Positions 1,173 to 16,349 of a stretch of 64,000 nucleotides of DNA are shown here, one piece after another (within the stretch, counting starts at the first letter, position 1; every line of letters begins with the position of its first letter). This DNA comes from Chthoniobacterales bacterium. GTDB lineage: Bacteria; Verrucomicrobiota; Verrucomicrobiia; Chthoniobacterales; JACTMZ01. Both the position numbers and the translations under genes were made by a program. The stretch lies in NCBI GenBank assembly GCA_021463515.1, contig JAJTYZ010000112.1:1764-65763 (forward strand), written 5' to 3'. The notes below the pieces were generated by a model. That model saw only the letters and a program-made list of their open reading frames with translations. It made no database searches and had not been told where the DNA came from.

Positions 1173-2102
1173 TTACCTAATCTCACCCTGCCATCCTTTT
1201 GGTTTAGCAGCGTGTCGGCCACTGATAAAAAACTTGCGAAATGTCACCCGCTTCACAGGTTGTCGTTTTTTCCAATAACTCGATGCTAATTTTAGGAAAT
1301 CCCAGACACCAAACAATCCGGAGTAAAACTCCTCTCCTCCCCCTTTCCATCCCCAACACACTTGGTTAATAGCTTTCCCTGGCAAATAATATAACACCTG
1401 CGGCATGGGGACACGCAGTAATGCAAAAATCAAATCATTCAATGTCCCGGAGCGATGCTGCTTTCCCCAATTCCGCCCACTCGTAGTTTTATCATGCCAA
1501 ACATGCACTCCGGGCAAAAATCGAACAACCCATCTATGATCCAAAAATCGCAGGCACAAATCCTTTTCTTCCGAACCATAATACCCAGGAAACTCCGCAT
1601 AATTTCCCACTTCTAAAGTATAACTTCGTCTCAAAACATGCCCACATCCCACATAACCCAAAGCATCCTTACCCACCTCACGTGCCACCTTCTTCGGGCG
1701 ATCCGGTGACAAAATATCAAATGCTACTCCCGCTACTTTGGTATCCTTCTCAAACTCACGCGCAGCCATCTCAATCTCATCTCCCCGCATAAACCAAGCA
1801 TCATCGTCCAAGCTACAAAACAAATCAAACCCCTCCATCTCCAACATCCGAGCCCGCGAATCAATCAACGACAACTCCTCTTCCGGCACAAAATGCCGAA
1901 TCCCCGGAAATCGTGCGATAATCTTCCCATTCTCCCTCCGCATCTCCTCTGTCCCGGAGTTATCCCACACCATCACATCAATCAATCCATAAGACTGCTC
2001 CAAACACGATTCCAAACACTTAGGCAAATATTCCGGTCTATCCTTCGTCACAATCCCCACACGCACCCGCAACTGCCCACTAATTTCCTCTTCTTTCAGC
2101 AT
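1173..2102 (-). CDS. Glycosyltransferase family 2
   Basis: VGIVTKDR...VWDNS, SLDDDAWF DxD motif, SEEKDL; start uncertain because the N-terminus overlaps a repeat arm. Confidence 0.85.
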   Translation of the reverse strand: MLKEEEISGQLRVRVGIVTKDRPEYLPKCLESCLEQSYGLIDVMVWDNSGTEEMRRENGKIIARFPGIRHFVPEEELSLIDSRARMLEMEGFDLFCSLDDDAWFMRGDEIEMAAREFEKDTKVAGVAFDILSPDRPKKVAREVGKDALGYVGCGHVLRRSYTLEVGNYAEFPGYYGSEEKDLCLRFLDHRWVVRFLPGVHVWHDKTTSGRNWGKQHRSGTLNDLIFALLRVPMPQVLYYLPGKAINQVCWGWKGGGEEFYSGLFGVWDFLKLASSYWKKRQPVKRVTFRKFFISGRHAAKPKGWQGEIR

Positions 2103-2135
2103 CTCAATCTCCCCCCCACTGACAACTGCCAACTT

Positions 2136-2691: not shown

Positions 2692-3642
2692 TCAAAATGG
2701 CGGCAAAGACCGCCCTACCAAAATATCAAAGTATCCGAGAAGCGAACCTTTCAGAACTCGCCACTGTTTTGGATTGTGTAGGCTCCCAATCATTGTAGCG
2801 ATCATTTGAAATGCGCCCCAGATCATAAGCCAAACCCAATATCTAAATCCTTGAATTCCCTGCACGCGGCGCGCCACAAAATCTCTATTAACCACGCCCA
2901 TCCTCGCCACCCTTGCAAGATCAGATTTATGGCTTCCTGTTTGAGTATCATGAAAAATCCGTGCCGTTCGCGCATTGACCAATTTCCATTTTCTAGCCAC
3001 CACCAATGACAAAGCCACATCTTCCATCATCGAATATCCGGTGAACATTGGATCAAATGGAGGATCAGGCAAAGCCTCACGACGATACAGTGTAAGTCCC
3101 AAATTTAGCCACCCCACCGAAACCACGTCCGGCATTTCTTCACGATCTGCTGGAAGAAGATTCACCGCAGGCCCAAAAATCTTTCCCGCATAATCCGGTC
3201 CTAAGCCACCACCAATCAGCCGGTAAACAAGCCGCGAAACTCTGCCAGGTTCATGATATTTCTGATTCGTAATCATTGCGCTGGCACCACCGTTATCCGA
3301 AGCCAAGTGTAAAGCATTCCAAACGCGCTCCAAAGCATGTGCCTCCAGAACAACATCATCATCCGCAAAACCAATAACATTCTCACGCACCAGACCCACT
3401 CCTTGATTTCGCTGAGCCGCAGCACCCCGCTGCTTGGCTGGAATACATAGTACCCTCGCGAACAAATCAAACCGTTCCTGCATCACACGGCATACCTCTA
3501 CGGTTTGAGTGTCCGACGAAGCATCCACCACCATGATTTCGCGTGGCCACACACCTTGAATCAATACAGATTCCAACATCTGTTGCAAAACAGCAGAACG
3601 CCCCGAAGTCGGGATCACCAGACTAAGGGGCAACACCTTCAA
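2692..3642 (-). CDS. Glycosyltransferase family 2
   Basis: SLVIPT..VVDAS, AAQRNQG, FADDDV, MEDVALS. Confidence 0.9.
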   Translation of the reverse strand: MKVLPLSLVIPTSGRSAVLQQMLESVLIQGVWPREIMVVDASSDTQTVEVCRVMQERFDLFARVLCIPAKQRGAAAQRNQGVGLVRENVIGFADDDVVLEAHALERVWNALHLASDNGGASAMITNQKYHEPGRVSRLVYRLIGGGLGPDYAGKIFGPAVNLLPADREEMPDVVSVGWLNLGLTLYRREALPDPPFDPMFTGYSMMEDVALSLVVARKWKLVNARTARIFHDTQTGSHKSDLARVARMGVVNRDFVARRVQGIQGFRYWVWLMIWGAFQMIATMIGSLHNPKQWRVLKGSLLGYFDILVGRSLPPF

Positions 3643-4376
3643 GTTGTGACCTCCCTAAGCACCCGCCAAAATCCCTCCCGAATCTTCACCGGGTCAAAAT
3701 CGCGTCTCCCTGCCTCTACAGCCCGCTTCGCCAGCCCAACCCTCAACTCTCCATCTGTCTTCAATCTTTGTAAGCACGCCACCAATTCCTCACGCGTGGT
3801 GCACGAAACCACCCCATTGGGGTAAAAATTGAGAAATTCTAAAACGCTAAAACGTTGCAATAATCCAACCCTTTCAGCATTTCCATTTTTCAGCTTTTCA
3901 GTTTCTTCACCTTTCAGCTTTCCCTCCCCTGTCAACTGCCCACTGCCAACTGCCAACTCCTCTACCCCACGCCCATATCTCACTCCGGTAGCAAACTCCG
4001 GCCCCGACACCACCACGGGCATCCCCAGTCCCAAATACTCCGTTAACTTACTTGGAAAATGCGTACGGTAAAGCATCTCATTATCTCCAGCAGGATTTGA
4101 ATAAGGTAAAATCATCACATCCGCCCGTTCCTGCATCGTGCGCCACATTTCTAGGATATTCATACGATGCGGCATCCATTCCACAACATCCGTCGCCTCC
4201 AATAATCCCTTTAACTTATACGGCGGTCGCGGTGTCGAAGTCAAAACCTTAGCATTCACCTCCCGCAACACCGGAATCAACGCCATCAACGCTTCCCCAT
4301 ATCCATAAGCCACCGATCCTGCATATCCCAGCGTCAAAGTCCCCACCCCATTTCCAGTATTCTCCTCTTGCTTCAT
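3639..4376 (-). CDS. Glycosyltransferase (GT-B/GT4-like), C-terminal half, with an in-frame repeat insertion
   Basis: LGYAGS, ADVMILP, FPSKLTEYLGLGMPVV; same frame as 4452..5093. Confidence 0.75.
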   Translation of the reverse strand: MKQEENTGNGVGTLTLGYAGSVAYGYGEALMALIPVLREVNAKVLTSTPRPPYKLKGLLEATDVVEWMPHRMNILEMWRTMQERADVMILPYSNPAGDNEMLYRTHFPSKLTEYLGLGMPVVVSGPEFATGVRYGRGVEELAVGSGQLTGEGKLKGEETEKLKNGNAERVGLLQRFSVLEFLNFYPNGVVSCTTREELVACLQRLKTDGELRVGLAKRAVEAGRRDFDPVKIREGFWRVLREVTT

Positions 4377-4451
4377 TTCAAAATTTTAGTCTTTCAGCCT
4401 CTCTCTGCCAACTGACTACTGATTCCTGCCAACTCCTCTCCTTCCAGCATT

Positions 4452-5093
4452 TTAGCCTTTCATCATTGCAGCCCGAAGTACTCTCGACATTTCGGGCGAG
4501 CGTGGCTGCAAATCCTCACTCCGATTCGGATACATCACCTCACCCCTCACACTATACCGATTCGCTAGATAATCTTCCATTTCCGGGCTCACGCACAATC
4601 TCCTTGCTGCTGCTCGATATACCCTTCGGTTTTGTTCAAATAATCCCCGCTTCGCCCAAGAAAAAACTTTCTCAAATTCCTCGTTAAGATCGTGGACAAT
4701 CAATACAAGCGGTACACCTAATAATCGTGCTGTCCGTTCCGCCGTCAGAATCCATGGCGTGCTCACCATCACCGCAACAACAATCCTTGGTTTAAAACTT
4801 CCCAATAAACTCAAAATCCTTCGATGTGTTGGCAAAGGAATCAACCCTGTTGCCGCCCATGATCGCTTATACATGCTAAATCGGGTATTATCAAAGCGCG
4901 CCATCGGCATTTTTAACTCACAGTAAGAACACGGTAGCACCTTTGCCCCATGATCTGTAGGCGGTCCCATAACGCACAGCGAATCTATGGGATACTCCGA
5001 AAAAAGGTGATACAACAATATCGCGCCTGCGTTTCGCGTTTGAGGAACTTCACCAGAAAGAATGAGCACATACGGCTTAATCATTGTCGGCAT
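4452..5093 (-). CDS. Glycosyltransferase (GT4-like), N-terminal half of a split gene
   Basis: PLVLIVHD, LCVSPEMEDY..VMYPN typical of a GT4 N-domain; the nucleotide-binding domain is in 3639..4376. Confidence 0.75.
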   Translation of the reverse strand: MPTMIKPYVLILSGEVPQTRNAGAILLYHLFSEYPIDSLCVMGPPTDHGAKVLPCSYCELKMPMARFDNTRFSMYKRSWAATGLIPLPTHRRILSLLGSFKPRIVVAVMVSTPWILTAERTARLLGVPLVLIVHDLNEEFEKVFSWAKRGLFEQNRRVYRAAARRLCVSPEMEDYLANRYSVRGEVMYPNRSEDLQPRSPEMSRVLRAAMMKG

Positions 5094-5144
5094 AATTATC
5101 TCTCGACTGTTATACTTTTAAGAAAGTTATCTATTGAACTACCT

Positions 5145-6623
5145 CTACCTTAATTCAACGACAATACTATCATCATCATCCTTGATTCTACCATCACGAA
5201 CAATACTTACATTAATACTTTTCCTCAACACCTGTTCAAGCCTATATTTCAACCACCCAGCATTCTTCTCCTCATAAAAATCAACCTCTCCATTCGTGAG
5301 CTTTTTCCGAACTATAACGACAAGTGATAAAGCTTCTGGATTGCGTGCTAATTTAGCTAGCGCGAGATCAAATACGACTTGTTCCTCCTGAACATTGCGT
5401 GATGTGTGCCAAGCTTCACCCCTTGTAGAAATAATATTAAAAAGACAAAACAAAATAATTAAAATTGAATACAATATCGGACGATTCAAGTGCCGAATCA
5501 TCCACAAATAGGCAATAGCTACTATCCCTAATGTAATGCCCATGTCAGCACCATAATTAAGGCGAGTTTGCGTTGAAATCGCACCCTGTGCTATAAATGT
5601 CCCTCGAAATCCGGCAAATAATACATAAGAAAACAACAAAATCCAAAGTATTGAAATTTTCCTTATGCCCCCTTCAGCTTTATCACTTTTAAGAAGAATA
5701 GCTCCACCCGAAAGGGCAAAGATGCCGATCAGACCCCATATAGGAAGGGTGATAGAATCTATTCCTTGATTCAACAGATCCCTCCAAGGAATGAGCCACA
5801 ATGAATGCAGCCATCGTAGGTGAACGGAGATGAGTGCTATAAACTTCCTTTCTATCCCGCCCCCCGGTGTCCGAGCACCAGAATCTAAAGGATATGTTAC
5901 CAAATATGCTCCCACCCAAATCATATAAGGAAGCAACATCCATCCCGATAACTTTAAAGCCGCCCAAATTCCCGCGCGCCACTCTCCTCGTGTAATTTTA
6001 TCCTTGCTCTTTGAATGTAATAATGCGATGGCAAAAAAGACTATCCATGACGCTAAAGCCTGTTCATAAATTAAAAGTGAGGCAAAAACTAAAGTTTGAG
6101 CATAAATCAAATAACGTATATGACCTATTTGCATCCACTCTTGAAATGAAATTAAGGCTAATAAAAAGAAGGCCATAGATAAGCGTTGATGTACACAAAC
6201 CCACCAGACAACGGTCTGCGTATGCCAAGGGGCAGTCACAAAGAGAAGAGTTGCTCCCAACGCAACAGCAGCAGGAAATCGCATTCGATGGAGAAAAATT
6301 AATAGAAGAACACCATTTACAGCGTGCCCTAAAATACCCACACACATAGCACCAAATTCACCGAGTATCCACCCACCATACCCAATTATTATTAAAGAAA
6401 ATGGACGTGCTACTGAATAACTGCCAGCTCCACTTTTTCTAATAGATTCAGATAAACTCGGCCACGTACCACCCGGCTGCCCAAAAACAAACATATAATC
6501 ATCACTAAACCACCCACCACCATAAAGGAGTGGACTATAACTTAAAATGGCAGCAAAGATGACCAAGAGAATTCCTGGCCACCTCTCCCTTATCCCCCAT
6601 AACTCAGAACACGCTACACTCAC
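5145..6623 (-). CDS. Polytopic membrane glycosyltransferase (GT-C/GtrII-like)
   Basis: N-terminal FSDDY loop, RPFS, many transmembrane segments, YEQ motif. Confidence 0.65.
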   Translation of the reverse strand: MSVACSELWGIRERWPGILLVIFAAILSYSPLLYGGGWFSDDYMFVFGQPGGTWPSLSESIRKSGAGSYSVARPFSLIIIGYGGWILGEFGAMCVGILGHAVNGVLLLIFLHRMRFPAAVALGATLLFVTAPWHTQTVVWWVCVHQRLSMAFFLLALISFQEWMQIGHIRYLIYAQTLVFASLLIYEQALASWIVFFAIALLHSKSKDKITRGEWRAGIWAALKLSGWMLLPYMIWVGAYLVTYPLDSGARTPGGGIERKFIALISVHLRWLHSLWLIPWRDLLNQGIDSITLPIWGLIGIFALSGGAILLKSDKAEGGIRKISILWILLFSYVLFAGFRGTFIAQGAISTQTRLNYGADMGITLGIVAIAYLWMIRHLNRPILYSILIILFCLFNIISTRGEAWHTSRNVQEEQVVFDLALAKLARNPEALSLVVIVRKKLTNGEVDFYEEKNAGWLKYRLEQVLRKSINVSIVRDGRIKDDDDSIVVELR

Positions 6624-12157: not shown

Positions 12158-13291
12158 TCATCCACCGCCGGCCAACTCTAAAAATCTCCGCGCCATGGCG
12201 GCAGGTGAATAATTCGCAATCACCCAATCATGTCCCTCAACAGCCACCTTACCCAAAATTTCAGGCTCATCTTTAATACGTTCAAGAGTTTTCTTCGGTT
12301 GCGCCAAATCAACTCCAATATAGTGTTTCCAATTCTCCGGCATTACCGGAAGATCAACTCCATACATCTCTAAATCCAGATTGATCACCACACACCCGGC
12401 CACCCAAGCCTCCCACGCTCGAAAACTATCCCACTGAATAGACCGCCGAGGTCGCAGATCAAACTTAGCTATAAAATCAAAAAAATGCCGTTTCAATTTT
12501 GCCTTATTCCCTCCCACCATATAGCTTTGCGGATTCCACGGCATCGGCGGAATAAGTTCACCACAAAAGCAAGCAACGGCTTGGCTACTCTTTAGGCGAT
12601 TGTAATAGTTTTGCGAAAACCTCATCCCCGTCTGTTCCCACATAAGCCGCTCATAAGGATTAGAAGGTTCTTTCTTGAGATCATCTTTCGTCGTATCGAA
12701 TGGGATTATCTTTTCTAATTGCGGCAAAAATTTCTTCTCGGCTTCAATTCGCGCTCCATGCCCATAGGGATGCGAGGCTCCAAAGTTCACCGACACAACA
12801 CGCCGCCGCTCGGCAAACGACAACGCTCCTGACGTAGCTTGCACAATACGGTTGGTGAACCCTAAAACCCACGGACGCATGTTTTCCGGATGCCACGCAC
12901 GGCGGTTCAACTTAGAACGCAAAATCAGATCAAACTTCCGGTATTCAGGTTCCCAAGATTCTGTCCAATACCCATCATGGTTGTCCATACACACCGTCAC
13001 ATACCTCCTTCCTTTCTTAAATAAGCCTTCCGGCAAAGGGCGCTTTAGAACCTCAAAACTCCCTGGACGCATAAAAACCGACCACGTGTAACTAACCACC
13101 ACAACATCGCAATCATCCGGGCTTACATCGGGGTCATGTTTTATTAAGAAATCGTCAGACACTGCAGACTGACGCCAATAATTACAGCTTCCATAAAATG
13201 GCACGCCGAGTTTTTTTAATCCTTCCGCCAGAGTAACTACATCCTCCTGCAGATTGAAAGGCTCATCACGACAATAGAAGTAAACCCGCAT
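12158..13291 (-). CDS. Putative glycosyltransferase / conserved glycan-locus protein
   Basis: C-terminus SFRAWEAWVAGC..ENWKHYI..YSPAAMARRF resembles a GT-B C-domain; ATG 13291 chosen because the upstream extension is repeat-derived. Confidence 0.55.
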   Translation of the reverse strand: MRVYFYCRDEPFNLQEDVVTLAEGLKKLGVPFYGSCNYWRQSAVSDDFLIKHDPDVSPDDCDVVVVSYTWSVFMRPGSFEVLKRPLPEGLFKKGRRYVTVCMDNHDGYWTESWEPEYRKFDLILRSKLNRRAWHPENMRPWVLGFTNRIVQATSGALSFAERRRVVSVNFGASHPYGHGARIEAEKKFLPQLEKIIPFDTTKDDLKKEPSNPYERLMWEQTGMRFSQNYYNRLKSSQAVACFCGELIPPMPWNPQSYMVGGNKAKLKRHFFDFIAKFDLRPRRSIQWDSFRAWEAWVAGCVVINLDLEMYGVDLPVMPENWKHYIGVDLAQPKKTLERIKDEPEILGKVAVEGHDWVIANYSPAAMARRFLELAGGG

Positions 13292-13331: not shown

Positions 13332-14390
13332 CTACCTACTGTCAACTTCCCTGCTCAGTTTTTCGGCCTTTTCTCCCAGTGCTGCAGCATAAGCTCCTAA
13401 GTCATGCTGACCGGCTCTAATCTCCCTTACAGCTTTCCACATGCCGCGCCTTCGTGACATTGTCATCTCCCATTCCAAACGCCTCAGTCGCCCCCTTCGC
13501 ATAAAGGACATAATCCAGAATCGCCAATCGTTGCGCGGATGCAAGATGCGCCCATTCTCAACAAATCCATGCAATACAGTTGAATAGGCATTGGCCTCCG
13601 CATTTTTCAGCAAATATTCATCAGAGCAACGACCCACAGGGATCAAATGATCCATCAACAACTTCTTAAATACACCCTTTCCATACCCTGATTGACACCC
13701 CACATAAGATAAGTCGGAATCTCCTCCGAAGCCAGCACTTTTTGGAGTCGGATCTAGCAGCCGACGCATCGGATTATCCAAAACACGTTGTCGGTAAAGT
13801 TTTAAGGTCTCCCTCCGTGCACATAGTCCTGCTCCCCATGGGGTGGAATCATGATGCTCAATCACATTGGACCAAATATCCTGTGTTAATTCACGCGCAC
13901 ACAAAGCACCCCGCAGCCAGGTATCAGGTGCCTTATCCGGCTCATCAAACTTTAGTAAAATTTGCCCACCCCAAGTTCCTAGGTGAGGGAAATCCCTAGA
14001 AATTTTGACAACCTCCTCAAGATAATCCGCCCGCAAAGCATTATCCTGATCCACAAAAACAAAGACATCTCCCTTCCCCAACTCAAACCCATACAGTCTG
14101 GAACTCACCAACCCAATCCCCTCCCGCTTCCGGTCCGTCTGCACAAGCCGCGCATTGGGATGCCATCCCAAATCCACAACCACCCTCCCTTCCTCCTCCC
14201 TCACCAACTCATCCCCTGCCCACTGCCCACTGCCAACTGTCAACTTCTTCCTCGACGCATCATCAATAACGATCAGCTCCCATTGATCCTTAGGCAGCGT
14301 CTGACTCATAAGTGCCTCCAGCACAATCCCCAAATGCCGCACTCCAGGATTGCAGCAGGGCATGATAACGGAAATGAAGTTGGCAGACAT
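13332..14390 (-). CDS. Glycosyltransferase family 2 with a short repeat-derived insertion
   Basis: ISVIMPCCNP, IDDAS, FVDQDN, GAGLC, GDSDL. Confidence 0.9.
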   Translation of the reverse strand: MSANFISVIMPCCNPGVRHLGIVLEALMSQTLPKDQWELIVIDDASRKKLTVGSGQWAGDELVREEEGRVVVDLGWHPNARLVQTDRKREGIGLVSSRLYGFELGKGDVFVFVDQDNALRADYLEEVVKISRDFPHLGTWGGQILLKFDEPDKAPDTWLRGALCARELTQDIWSNVIEHHDSTPWGAGLCARRETLKLYRQRVLDNPMRRLLDPTPKSAGFGGDSDLSYVGCQSGYGKGVFKKLLMDHLIPVGRCSDEYLLKNAEANAYSTVLHGFVENGRILHPRNDWRFWIMSFMRRGRLRRLEWEMTMSRRRGMWKAVREIRAGQHDLGAYAAALGEKAEKLSREVDSR

Positions 14391-14407
14391 CAGTAGTCAG
14401 TTGGCAG

Positions 14408-14758
14408 TTATTGCTTCAGTGAGCGTATCAAACCTTGGATCATGGCCGAAAGCTCACGACTATCGCTGATCCAGCGATCAGCAATAGAGTTTTCTAGCAA
14501 ACCGGCTTTTACACCCACAGTTGCTTGTGTCCGAAATTCCCCACATGAACCTCGAGCGTAATCAAGAAACTTCAAGCGATCGGGCAGCGATCTCCGCTCC
14601 ATACCTTCAGCAATATTCGAGGGAATAGAAAGTGCCGAACGTGTTATCTGATCACGAAACCCGAAATCTACACACTTCGCAAGCTTTCTGTAAACGTTAG
14701 CACTCAGCTCTACGGAACGCTTCCAATCCTCCAAATCTTCAAAACCCGCCATATACAA
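14408..14758 (-). CDS. Four helix bundle protein (23S rRNA-IVP / Avd-like family)
   Basis: FEDLEDWKRS..DFGFRDQITRSALSIPSNIAEG..FLDYARGSCGE. Confidence 0.9.
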   Translation of the reverse strand: MYMAGFEDLEDWKRSVELSANVYRKLAKCVDFGFRDQITRSALSIPSNIAEGMERRSLPDRLKFLDYARGSCGEFRTQATVGVKAGLLENSIADRWISDSRELSAMIQGLIRSLKQ

Positions 14759-14790
14759 ATTTCCCCTAGTGACTGTCTGCTGCCCGCTGA

Positions 14791-15708
14791 TTACTGCCTA
14801 CTGCCCAAAATTTCCCTGAAATTTTGGGCATATTCCGCAAGACACACCTTCCAATCCCGCATATAATTAATCCCTCTCCACTCCAACTTCATATTAACCA
14901 GCTTCTCAGAATACGGACGCGGCGCAAAGTACTCCTCCTTCCAATAATCGGAACCCACTTCCGTCACTTTCACATCATCCTCCAGCCCTAGAAGTCTCAC
15001 AAATTCCTTGGCAACATCTAAGCGGCTACAGCTTCCTCCACACACCTGATTATAGAGTCCGTAATGCCCCGTTTCCAAAACTCTAAACATCCCATTGGCA
15101 AAGTCTTTGGTATAAGTCGGCGTCCCCAACTTATCCGCCACCACAAAAAGTTCCTTCGCTCCTCCCTGAATTTGCTTAAAAATTTTATTAACAAACTTCT
15201 TGTCCTTTTTCGGGCCGCCCCCCATCATCCATCCCGCACGAAAAATAAAATACTTGCTCATTTTCCGTTCTACAAAGCACTCTCCATAATATTTCGACTT
15301 GGCATAATGACTCGTTGGCAGAGGCATATCGAAATCTGCATAGAACTCCTGCTCGCCGCCAAAAATTCCGGCGGTACTCACATAAACCATGGTTATCCCG
15401 CGAGATTCCGCCAGCAATGCTGTATTCTCCGGCCCCAGCGCATTCGTCGCCCACGAATCCTCCGGATTTTGCTCGCAATATTCCAAATCCGTCAAAGCCC
15501 CCAAATGAAAAACTACCGTGGGCGCAAACTCATCAAACAGCTTCTTCAACGAGAATAAATCTCGAAAGTCCTGATAAACCAACCAAGGTTCATTCACATC
15601 AATATCCGTCGCCAATACATGTTCATATCTTTGCGTTGCCACCTCAAAAACAGCGGCCCCCAACATCCCCCCAGCCCCCAACAACAATACTTTATCCTGT
15701 GTATTCAT
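14791..15708 (-). CDS. rfbD: dTDP-4-dehydrorhamnose reductase-like SDR
   Basis: GAGGMLG, YAKSK, GTPTYTKD, APRP. Confidence 0.75.
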   Translation of the reverse strand: MNTQDKVLLLGAGGMLGAAVFEVATQRYEHVLATDIDVNEPWLVYQDFRDLFSLKKLFDEFAPTVVFHLGALTDLEYCEQNPEDSWATNALGPENTALLAESRGITMVYVSTAGIFGGEQEFYADFDMPLPTSHYAKSKYYGECFVERKMSKYFIFRAGWMMGGGPKKDKKFVNKIFKQIQGGAKELFVVADKLGTPTYTKDFANGMFRVLETGHYGLYNQVCGGSCSRLDVAKEFVRLLGLEDDVKVTEVGSDYWKEEYFAPRPYSEKLVNMKLEWRGINYMRDWKVCLAEYAQNFREILGSRQ

Positions 15709-15794
15709 ATCTTTTATAAATTAAATTCTTCCCATTTTCAACATTTAAGATTTTCAGTATTTTAGCTTTTTCTCCACTCCCTCCTACCAACTGC

Positions 15795-16349
15795 CTACTG
15801 ACTCCTGCCAACTATCCCTTCCCCCAAACTCCCTCCCCTCCCATCCTTTTCCGAAACAACCGGCTCTCCTTTAAGTGGCCACTGAATGCCTAATGATTTA
15901 TCGTTCCAGAGAATGCAACATTCGTAAGATGGCGAATAAAACTCCGTAGTTTTATAGGCAACATCGGCAAACTCAGAGAGCACATAAAATCCATGCGCAA
16001 AACCTTCCGGAATCCACAACATCTCTTGCGCCTCATCAGTTAATACCTCACCCACCCACTTTCCATAGGTCGCAGATTCAGGACGAATATCCACAGCGAC
16101 ATCGAAAATCTTCCCCCGCATCACCGTGATCAGTTTTGCCTGAGCCTTGGGTTCCACTTGATAATGCAATCCCCGCAAAACATTCCTTTTCGAACGCGAA
16201 TGATTATCCTGCACAAACTCTACCTGACGATTCAATACTTCATTTAACTTCAAGCGATTCCAAGATTCCAAAAAGAACCCTCGCTCATCACGAAAAATTT
16301 TCGGCTTAAGCAACATCACACCATCTAGCTTCGTTTGAATTACTTCCAT
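15795..16349 (-). CDS. rfbC: dTDP-4-dehydrorhamnose 3,5-epimerase
   Basis: DERGFFLES, FVQDNHSRS, LRGLHYQ, GFAHGF. Confidence 0.95.
   Translation of the reverse strand: MEVIQTKLDGVMLLKPKIFRDERGFFLESWNRLKLNEVLNRQVEFVQDNHSRSKRNVLRGLHYQVEPKAQAKLITVMRGKIFDVAVDIRPESATYGKWVGEVLTDEAQEMLWIPEGFAHGFYVLSEFADVAYKTTEFYSPSYECCILWNDKSLGIQWPLKGEPVVSEKDGRGGSLGEGIVGRSQ

Follow-up and report, generated by a model that had tools for sequence, protein, structure and literature searches.

The stretch of DNA analysed here, referred to below as the window, comprises 64,000 nt of contig JAJTYZ010000112.1 (assembly GCA_021463515.1, Chthoniobacterales) from a wastewater Verrucomicrobiota metagenome-assembled genome (MAG) of 2.1 Mb and 65.65% completeness, and our subject is a glycosyltransferase gene within it that is cut in two by an insert of short repeats. 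The gene lies in a polysaccharide cluster, a tight minus-strand operon, and consists of two open reading frames (ORFs) on that strand, an N half at 5093..4452 (213 aa) and a C half at 4376..3639 (245 aa). An earlier note, made from the sequence alone, had claimed that both halves occupy one frame with TAA, TAG and TAA between them, that the other frames are closed across the linker and that an ATG follows the insert, and the ORF coordinates bear out each of these points (Table 1). The remaining two sense frames of the insert hold one stop, just before the ATG, and five stops respectively. The ATG of the C half (4376-4374) is found inside an array of 8-mers, at TTTGAAATG, with an A/T-rich leader, and the C-half stop codon (3639-3641) overlaps the TTG start codon of the next gene, which belongs to glycosyltransferase family 2 (GT2), in the form TTGA. 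The spacing from the motif YPNRS to the motif GYAGS is 63 aa in the window as compared with 22 aa in insert-free orthologs, so that the insert amounts to approximately 41 codons, with boundaries that match the 4345-4465 given in the note.

Table 1. Coordinates of the split glycosyltransferase gene, its inserts and related features of the window
Feature	Position	Strand	Comment
N-half coding part	4455..5093	-	N-terminal Rossmann-like domain of GT-B glycosyltransferase; ends ...VLRAAMMKG, then TAA
C-half coding part	3642..4376	-	C-terminal Rossmann-like domain, 245 aa
First in-frame stop, TAA	4452..4454	-	End of N half
Second in-frame stop, TAG	4416..4418	-	In heptamer core
Third in-frame stop, TAA	4386..4388	-	9 nt upstream of C-half ATG
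Linker insert	4344..4469	-	About 41 codons (about 123 nt); boundaries by comparison with insert-free orthologs
Heptamer core of linker insert	4405..4434	-	28/30 identical to 14378-14407 (blastn-short, E 1.4e-5 against the whole 2.1-Mb genome)
Second insert, in C half	3831..3968	-	In frame, stop-free; surface loop; same repeat types as linker insert
TTGGCAG-type heptamer array (CTGCC(C/A)A)	14216..14245	-	In frame, read as LTVGSGQWAG, within 352-aa ORF 13332..14390
Intact 23S_rRNA_IVP (Avd-like) gene with array flanks	14378..14810	-	Gene 14408..14758, 116 aa, Pfam 95.9 bits
Broken 23S_rRNA_IVP gene, one in-frame TAG	29467..~29830		Pieces 29467..29688 and ~29740..29830

Contigs from three public DNA runs of three studies (sludge, biofilm and aquatic) carry the whole stretch with one or two substitutions and with neither an indel nor a joint, which makes an assembly artefact an unlikely origin of the split arrangement. 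The independence of these runs is limited, since the run table marks X3 and X14 as a possible source of this DNA and the same warning applies to the near-identical records of X3 and X16. Two differences between these near-identical strains are both non-synonymous: at position 5008 the MAG encodes His29 and three other runs have an Arg codon, and at position 4975 one run encodes Tyr40 and not Cys40. One RNA run, X18, yielded a single 257-nt contig over 3600-3774 together with a repeat-only piece, which informs on transcription of the insert in neither direction.

Read in the sense direction, the insert opens with a block of degenerate 8-mers (GCTGCAAT GATGAAAG GCTAAAAT GCTGGAAG), continues with the 7-mers GTTGGCA GGAATCA GTAGTCA GTTGGCA and closes with a second block of 8-mers (GCTGAAAG ACTAAAAT TTTGAAAT ...), which holds the C-half ATG. 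The earlier note had described the linker as made of heptamer and octamer motifs. This was right in kind, as a repeat search related 4366-4471 to the cleaner array at 3870-3963 with 66-80% identity, but the units are degenerate, given that Tandem Repeats Finder (TRF) reported no array in 4345-4465 at a score of at least 30. The window contains the word CTGCCAACTGCC, with one mismatch or fewer, 11 times where 0.30 occurrences would be expected, and none of 100 shuffles reached 11. The second insert, within the C half, reads as 7-mers (ELAVGSGQLTG), then as sense 8-mers (KLKGEETEKLKNGNAE) and then as antisense 8-mers (LQRFSVLEFLNF); TRF arrays in the C half are found at 3872-3921 (period 8) and 3929-3958 (period 7).

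The N half matches the Pfam models Glyco_transf_4 and Glyco_trans_4_4 with 42.8 and 42.9 bits (cut-offs 28.5 and 29.7 respectively), and the precomputed Pfam annotation gives PF13692 for some relatives, while a search of the PDB by sequence returned no chain at an E-value of 0.001 or better. A query in which the linker was read through was scored against 8000 candidates, of which 448 proteins matched at E 1e-5 or better. Among the best 120 of these 448 proteins, the distant family members are 381-420 aa long and those of the close clade (50-64% identity) 409-605 aa. Their alignment contains three hypervariable sites, namely after RLFxGY near the N-terminus, at the interdomain linker and in a loop of the C domain, and the split lies at the second of them. 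When the linkers of 75 fused homologs were classified, 44 were of 22 aa and 31 were of 23-107 aa, and the extra residues of fused forms are translations of repeats (EKLKSGNAEKLK, FQRFSISEF, FDILKD and ADQETKR). The linker site is both hypervariable and tolerant of insertion.

A genome of the same genus, G041, has an intact ortholog of 424 aa without the insert, and its AlphaFold 2 (AF2) model, with a predicted local distance difference test score (pLDDT) of 93.8, places all three insert sites in loops or in the linker, the sole low-confidence internal block being the third site. A Foldseek search with this model returned the glycosyltransferase family 4 (GT4) enzymes GlgM, BshA, PglA, PimB', MshA and WaaG with a probability of 1.0 and template-modelling (TM) scores of 0.59-0.66. 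The model of the G041 ortholog, these fold neighbours and the predicted complex of the window halves, in which residues 226-244 of the C half touch the N domain, agree with the GT-B fold of two Rossmann-like domains, a linker and a C-terminal helix that crosses back to the N domain. Retaining GT4 enzymes carry the motif EX7E; in the invariant block HFPSKLTEY, read directly, only the second position holds Glu. The N half was matched in 4 of 41 genomes of relatives and the read-through query in 4 of 31 genomes of the genus (G000 included in both counts). Among 40 loci from a scan of genome contigs, a single close one stood out, which belongs to a Chthoniobacterales MAG and is 55% identical, fused and free of the insert.

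The split form is not peculiar to the window. A search with the N half returned 40 proteins and, taken with the earlier matches, there are 38 N-only proteins, including the window's own cluster P0122; these ORFs end 18-39 aa past YPNRS, many of them as ...RAEVAAAEKLKx. The corresponding search with the C half returned 38 proteins, and 27 of the 33 examined were C-only. Their starts read MSAFPLTL (14 proteins), MSTPLTL (six), MKQEENTGNGV (three, window included), MSSSFLTL (one) and MSALPLTL (one), and two had truncated heads. Nine N-only/C-only pairs have equal 'longest contig' values, from which it would appear that the members of each pair lie on one contig.

The closest relatives with this arrangement are the N half P0123 and the C halves P0031 and P0033, the latter two having the start MKQEENTGNGV in common with the window. 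P0033, which starts MKQEENTGNGVK, is 74% identical to the window C half by BLASTP and 82-83% identical in the alignment, and the values for P0031 are 80% and 86% respectively. P0123 is 70% identical to the window N half and ends ...GGELAAVSSQLAVGRRKY, which is the window heptamer core in another frame; the third frame of the window reads ELAGISSQLAER and matches this tail, so the insert is homologous in the two and the stops differ. The longest contig is 13359 for both P0123 and P0033. Because P0123/P0033, at approximately 70% and 74-83% identity, have the same insert architecture and the same C-half start, the split does not appear to be recent, and the 'recent' in the earlier note's suggestion of a recent knockout found no support; an older inactivation is a lesser possibility.

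In two further lineages, other genes were found between the halves. Loci L056 and L058 (98.8% alike, one population) have a whole 23S_rRNA_IVP gene there (PF05635, 37.3 bits against a cut-off of 33.8), in the order N half, GCTGAAAA-type arrays, 23S_rRNA_IVP gene, inverted arrays and a C half starting MSAFPLTL. Loci L066 and L069 (99.7% alike, one population, from a lake metagenome) have a 369-aa Acyl_transf_3 gene in the same orientation. Their N half ends ...AAAGNLKI, the acyltransferase stands directly behind CTGAAAATTTGAAATG and the C half then starts MSSSFLTL; in L066 the acyltransferase gene (940-2049) begins immediately after CTGAAAATTTGAA.

How such arrays can both end and begin an ORF follows from their unit lengths. 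As 7 and 8 are coprime with 3, a unit meets all three codon phases every 21 or 24 nt. In a model sense array of GCTGAAAA/T, every frame meets a stop once per 24 nt (AEKLKS*), and a model array of GCTGAAAT additionally has an ATG in each frame. The model antisense array TTTTCAGC is open in all frames (FSAFQLFS), and model heptamer arrays are open in both orientations. This explains the AEKLKx tails of N-only proteins and the FQxFSxSxF peptides of fused forms, and also why both the C half and the L066 acyltransferase start at ...TTTGAAATG. In the split linker of the window, the stops that end the N half and the ATG that opens the C half come from the array itself.

We then compared the halves at columns that are at least 90% conserved among fused homologs (34 in the N half and 41 in the C half). 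The window keeps 32 of the 34 (the exceptions being R29H and G181S) and 40 of the 41, and its halves are open over 213 and 245 codons, in line with the claim of the earlier note that both are otherwise intact. The 37 other N-only proteins, with pairwise identities of 43-89% (median 68%), keep a mean of 99.0% of these 34 N-half columns, as against 97.6% in 79 fused homologs. Of the positions at which the window and P0123 differ, 9 belong to the 81 conserved columns and 50 to the 106 variable ones (Fisher p 9e-8). Split forms therefore seem, on these alignments, to be common and under constraint. A FastTree phylogeny of C-domain cores (60 rows, 210 columns) was built without cores shorter than 190 aa and without rows less than 50% identical to the window, one outgroup excepted. 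In this tree the window groups with P0031 and P0033 in a split clade (support 100), and fused and split forms are interleaved, with at least 17 changes, at least four of them forced by well-supported branches. The fused and split labels are not significantly clustered, as 60 of 500 shuffles needed as few changes.

Structure prediction was also used to dock the two window halves. Their predicted complex reached an ipSAE score of 0.87, compared with 0.00 for the best of three controls. This mark is attained by 58 of 80 solved complexes and by 2 of 110 mismatched pairs. The docking runs agree in at least 90% of contacts, with a partner pLDDT of at least 80. The predicted interface is reciprocal, residues 187-211 of the N half lying on the C domain and residues 226-244 of the C half on the N domain. 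It may be that this result stems solely from resemblance to single-chain GT-B structures.

Taking these results together, we consider it probable that the split gene encodes a two-polypeptide enzyme whose halves work together. Of the readings offered in the earlier note this is the best supported, given that diverged split forms are common, that conserved residues are kept, that relatives accommodate entire genes between the halves and that docking is predicted. The near-identity of the allele in contigs of three DNA runs from three studies also counts in its favour. We propose that a GT-B (GT4-like) gene of the polysaccharide cluster was cut at its interdomain linker by an array of GCTGAAAN-type 8-mers and TTGGCAG-type 7-mers, repeats of the kind that flanks 23S_rRNA_IVP (Avd-like) genes in this genus. 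The two ORFs would be translated separately from the operon transcript, and their products would then come together as an ordinary two-domain enzyme in which the N-half tail packs against the C domain and the final C-half helix against the N domain, as in Alg13/Alg14 or EpsE/EpsF. The earlier note had cautioned that frame preservation alone means little, and we agree; the same-frame layout is most simply seen as inherited from a fused ancestor that carried the insert in frame and read it through, as many relatives still do. The linker array would on this proposal drift between open and closed states while the function is kept.

Several observations weigh against the two-polypeptide enzyme, and some of them speak for a pseudogene, in which the stops arose in, or came with, the repeat insert and the halves remain intact through shortness of time or through some other role kept by one half alone. 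The linker contains three stops, not one. The only RNA-library contig covers 3600-3774 and could be DNA carry-over. No Shine-Dalgarno-like sequence was found upstream of the C-half ATG, although the N half and several neighbouring genes of the cluster are likewise without one. R29H affects a column at which at least 90% of fused homologs have Arg, so that the MAG copy could be slightly impaired. The C-half differences from the relatives follow the same trend as those of the N half but are not significant (3/69 versus 14/113, p 0.11; 6/69 versus 19/113, p 0.18), and the match of the C half to the Pfam model Glyco_trans_1_4, at 17.7 bits, is below the curated cut-off of 27. Glycosyltransferase genes of variable polysaccharide clusters are often lost, and just 3 of the 30 other genus genomes yielded the close ortholog. 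With regard to the comparison set, the split common to the window and P0123/P0033 is read from protein tails and longest-contig values rather than from DNA, DNA was read for three split lineages only (the window, L056/L058 and L066/L069), some 'split' ORFs in the databases may be frameshift errors in repeats or truncations at contig ends, and the C-domain tree of 210 columns has many weak forks. Even so, we regard a pseudogene as rather unlikely: both window halves are open over their full length with nearly all conserved columns kept, the same split with two open halves recurs in a relative of 70-82% identity, the N-half differences fall preferentially outside conserved columns, residue conservation in dozens of diverged split homologs is no poorer than in fused ones, and the C-half stop overlaps the start of the next gene.

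No support was found for bypass, splicing or phase variation of the window gene. That a full-length enzyme is produced by ribosomal bypass (as in T4 gene 60; bioRxiv 10.1101/2022.08.31.505936), by stop codon readthrough or by excision of the insert from the transcript, as the earlier note had in part suggested, would suit the common frame, an insert length that is a multiple of 3 and the shortness of the insert, yet we hold it to be extremely improbable. Three stops of two kinds would have to be passed, and TAA and TAG are ordinary stops here, ending 17 and 8 respectively of the 42 window ORFs longer than 250 aa. In the bypass of T4 gene 60, matched take-off and landing codons surround the gap and a stem-loop stands at the take-off site. 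The split gene resembles that system in having a short non-coding gap inside a coding frame, but it has neither matched codons nor a hairpin, it holds three stops and its gap is not conserved. Specifically, GGC precedes the first stop, and this codon does not recur in frame between the third stop and LTLGYAGS. The RNA folds no better than shuffled sequence, with a minimum free energy of -31.3 kcal/mol where the shuffles average -30.35 (z -0.32, 73 of 200 shuffles being at least as stable). An Rfam scan of 3000-6000 (E <=1) detected no intron or ribozyme, the single hit being a chance snoRNA match at 3232-3280 with 25.6 bits against a gathering score of 75. The N half of P0123 continues into the heptamers, reads them in a different frame and ends at another place, so that no recoding signal is conserved. 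Finally, no joint that skips the insert occurs in any contig compared, with the limit that contigs hide rare variants. Slippage of the 7- and 8-mers might alternatively switch the gene between a fused (on) and a split or off state within populations, as in a phase-variable contingency locus. Units of 7 and 8 nt shift the frame on a change of copy number, the gene lies in a surface-polysaccharide cluster and fused and split states are interleaved on the family tree; nevertheless we think this very unlikely, because the window units are too degenerate for a TRF array and form no near-perfect tandem tract, because stops in all three sense frames mean that no single slippage event opens the linker, and because the contigs of the three runs are free of indels, rare variants again being hidden in such contigs.

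The elements of the two-polypeptide reading are of already known kinds: split GT-B enzymes, genes in pieces through selfish inserts and repeats with stops in all frames. In Alg13/Alg14 and the bacterial EpsE/EpsF, the domains of a GT-B enzyme are separate polypeptides with the active site in the cleft between them, and split and re-fused states are described as alternating in the evolution of this family (PMC8993221). The split gene resembles them in that its N and C domains are on separate ORFs. In contrast with that family, which is GT1/GT28 and MurG-like, the window enzyme is GT4-like by Pfam models and fold neighbours, and whereas the Alg13/Alg14 split is ancient, that of the window falls within a shallow clade beside fused orthologs with its repeat-array cause visible. 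By analogy, the window enzyme would work like Alg13/Alg14 and EpsE/EpsF, but it is not a member by sequence. A gene in pieces is exemplified by phage nrdA, which is fragmented by a homing-endonuclease gene (PMC3045599). The likeness lies in a selfish insert between domains that leaves two ORFs with products that come together again, and a selfish-looking 23S_rRNA_IVP gene does stand between the halves in L056/L058. There is, however, no endonuclease here: the window linker holds only repeats, genes between the pieces being confined to the relatives (PF05635 in L056/L058 and Acyl_transf_3 in L066/L069), and the four-helix-bundle cassette is a putatively mobile one.

For the repeats, the nearest precedent is the TAACTGA heptamer direct repeats of Beggiatoaceae, Cyanobacteria and Bacteroidetes, which in the forward direction supply stops in three frames, in the reverse direction are read as peptide and are located just upstream of starts, often without a Shine-Dalgarno sequence; the author suggests that gene-splitting insertions might become fixed (MacGregor 2015, PMC4679880). 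The split linker is similar in that all its sense frames are closed, and the antisense model array is open. It differs in its units (GCTGAAAN-like 8-mers together with TTGGCAG-like 7-mers), in its phylum (Verrucomicrobiota), in that arrays here form the inverted flanks of 23S_rRNA_IVP genes and in offering a specific split enzyme whose fused and split relatives are numerous. New here are a GT4-like clade that has, at a single linker, many members of the fused, read-through and split kinds, repeats that themselves act as stop-and-start modules, and an association with PF05635 genes that have inverted array flanks. If the halves do cooperate, this clade would provide a natural series of fused, split and gene-separated GT-B enzymes at shallow depth. 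The molecular cause of the split can still be read from the DNA, and this would open to direct experiment the domain fission and fusion that is usually inferred only for ancient events such as Alg13/Alg14. It is also a caution not to annotate glycosyltransferase genes interrupted by stops in Verrucomicrobiota MAGs as pseudogenes by default.

The repeats also connect the insert with the 23S_rRNA_IVP genes of the same genome. The intact gene at 14408..14758 has inverted arrays on its flanks, TTGGCAG-type on the left (14378-14407) and CTGCC(N)A-type on the right, and judged by sequence the whole element is a likely relative or source of the insert core. This gene is wedged between two polysaccharide-cluster genes, 10 kb from the split glycosyltransferase. 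The broken gene has the inverted flanks GGTTCTT x6.1 (29420-29462) and ACCAAGA x8.7 (29838-29897), and a third gene, on contig C77, is flanked by GTTGAGA/TCTCAAC arrays; each copy in the genome carries a heptamer unit of its own. Across the genus, matches to the family at E 1e-10 or better were found in 24 of 31 genomes. A crude detector of flank arrays, applied to 30 genus loci of the family, scored an inverted heptamer pair at 8, an array on the left at 19, an array on the right at 16 and no array at 5. In G041, contig C18 has a 23S_rRNA_IVP gene with one TAA (12625-12930) approximately 3 kb from the intact insert-free ortholog.

Avd and the four-helix-bundle proteins of 23S rRNA intervening sequences together make up PF05635 (PMC10053308), and the genes at 14408-14758 and in L056 belong to this family. 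They differ from Avd in being free-standing, multi-copy and heptamer-flanked, and neither a reverse transcriptase nor a diversity-generating retroelement was seen beside them, none having been sought. In full-text literature outside subscription journals and supplements we found no description of a link between PF05635 genes and inverted heptamer/octamer arrays, and a search for heptanucleotides with four-helix bundles gave nothing relevant but PMC4679880; the present data point to such an undescribed link. An extended proposal, which we judge unlikely as a whole, is that arrays with 23S_rRNA_IVP cargo repeatedly split or pass through host genes. The 7/8-mer arrays would be the working ends of a small mobile cassette with a 23S_rRNA_IVP (Avd-like) gene as cargo, and the cassette would land in, or survive only in, loops and domain linkers. 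Sense arrays, with their stops and, in the GCTGAAAT form, their ATGs, would split the host gene into working, separately translated pieces, and antisense arrays, open in all frames, would simply be read through. Later loss of the cargo would leave 'solo' arrays such as the window insert. If true, this would mean repeated domain fission and re-fusion of enzymes in Verrucomicrobiota.

Across the MAG as a whole the repeats are local and degenerate rather than a rampant family, as only two clean arrays of at least three TGAAA/TTTCA cores at a spacing of 8 were found (0-1 in 20 shuffles), together with five CTGNNNA x3 arrays. Repeats often remain unassembled in MAGs. At 3912-3963, short contigs of other loci or organisms pile up to a summed depth of 298, against approximately 11 on the flanks, which indicates that CTGCCAA-type arrays are abundant in these communities. 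The heptamer array at 14216-14245 is 31/34 identical to 3925-3958 in the C half of the split glycosyltransferase. The intergenic stretch 15740-15815, upstream of the gene 14791..15708, has the same layout of 8-mers followed by 7-mers as the linker insert and is 25/27 identical to its core. Lastly, the TTG start of the GT2 ORF 1173..2132 falls within a TTGGCAG TTGTCAG heptamer pair (2119-2130), and from this example the repeats may supply the start regions of other genes of the cluster.

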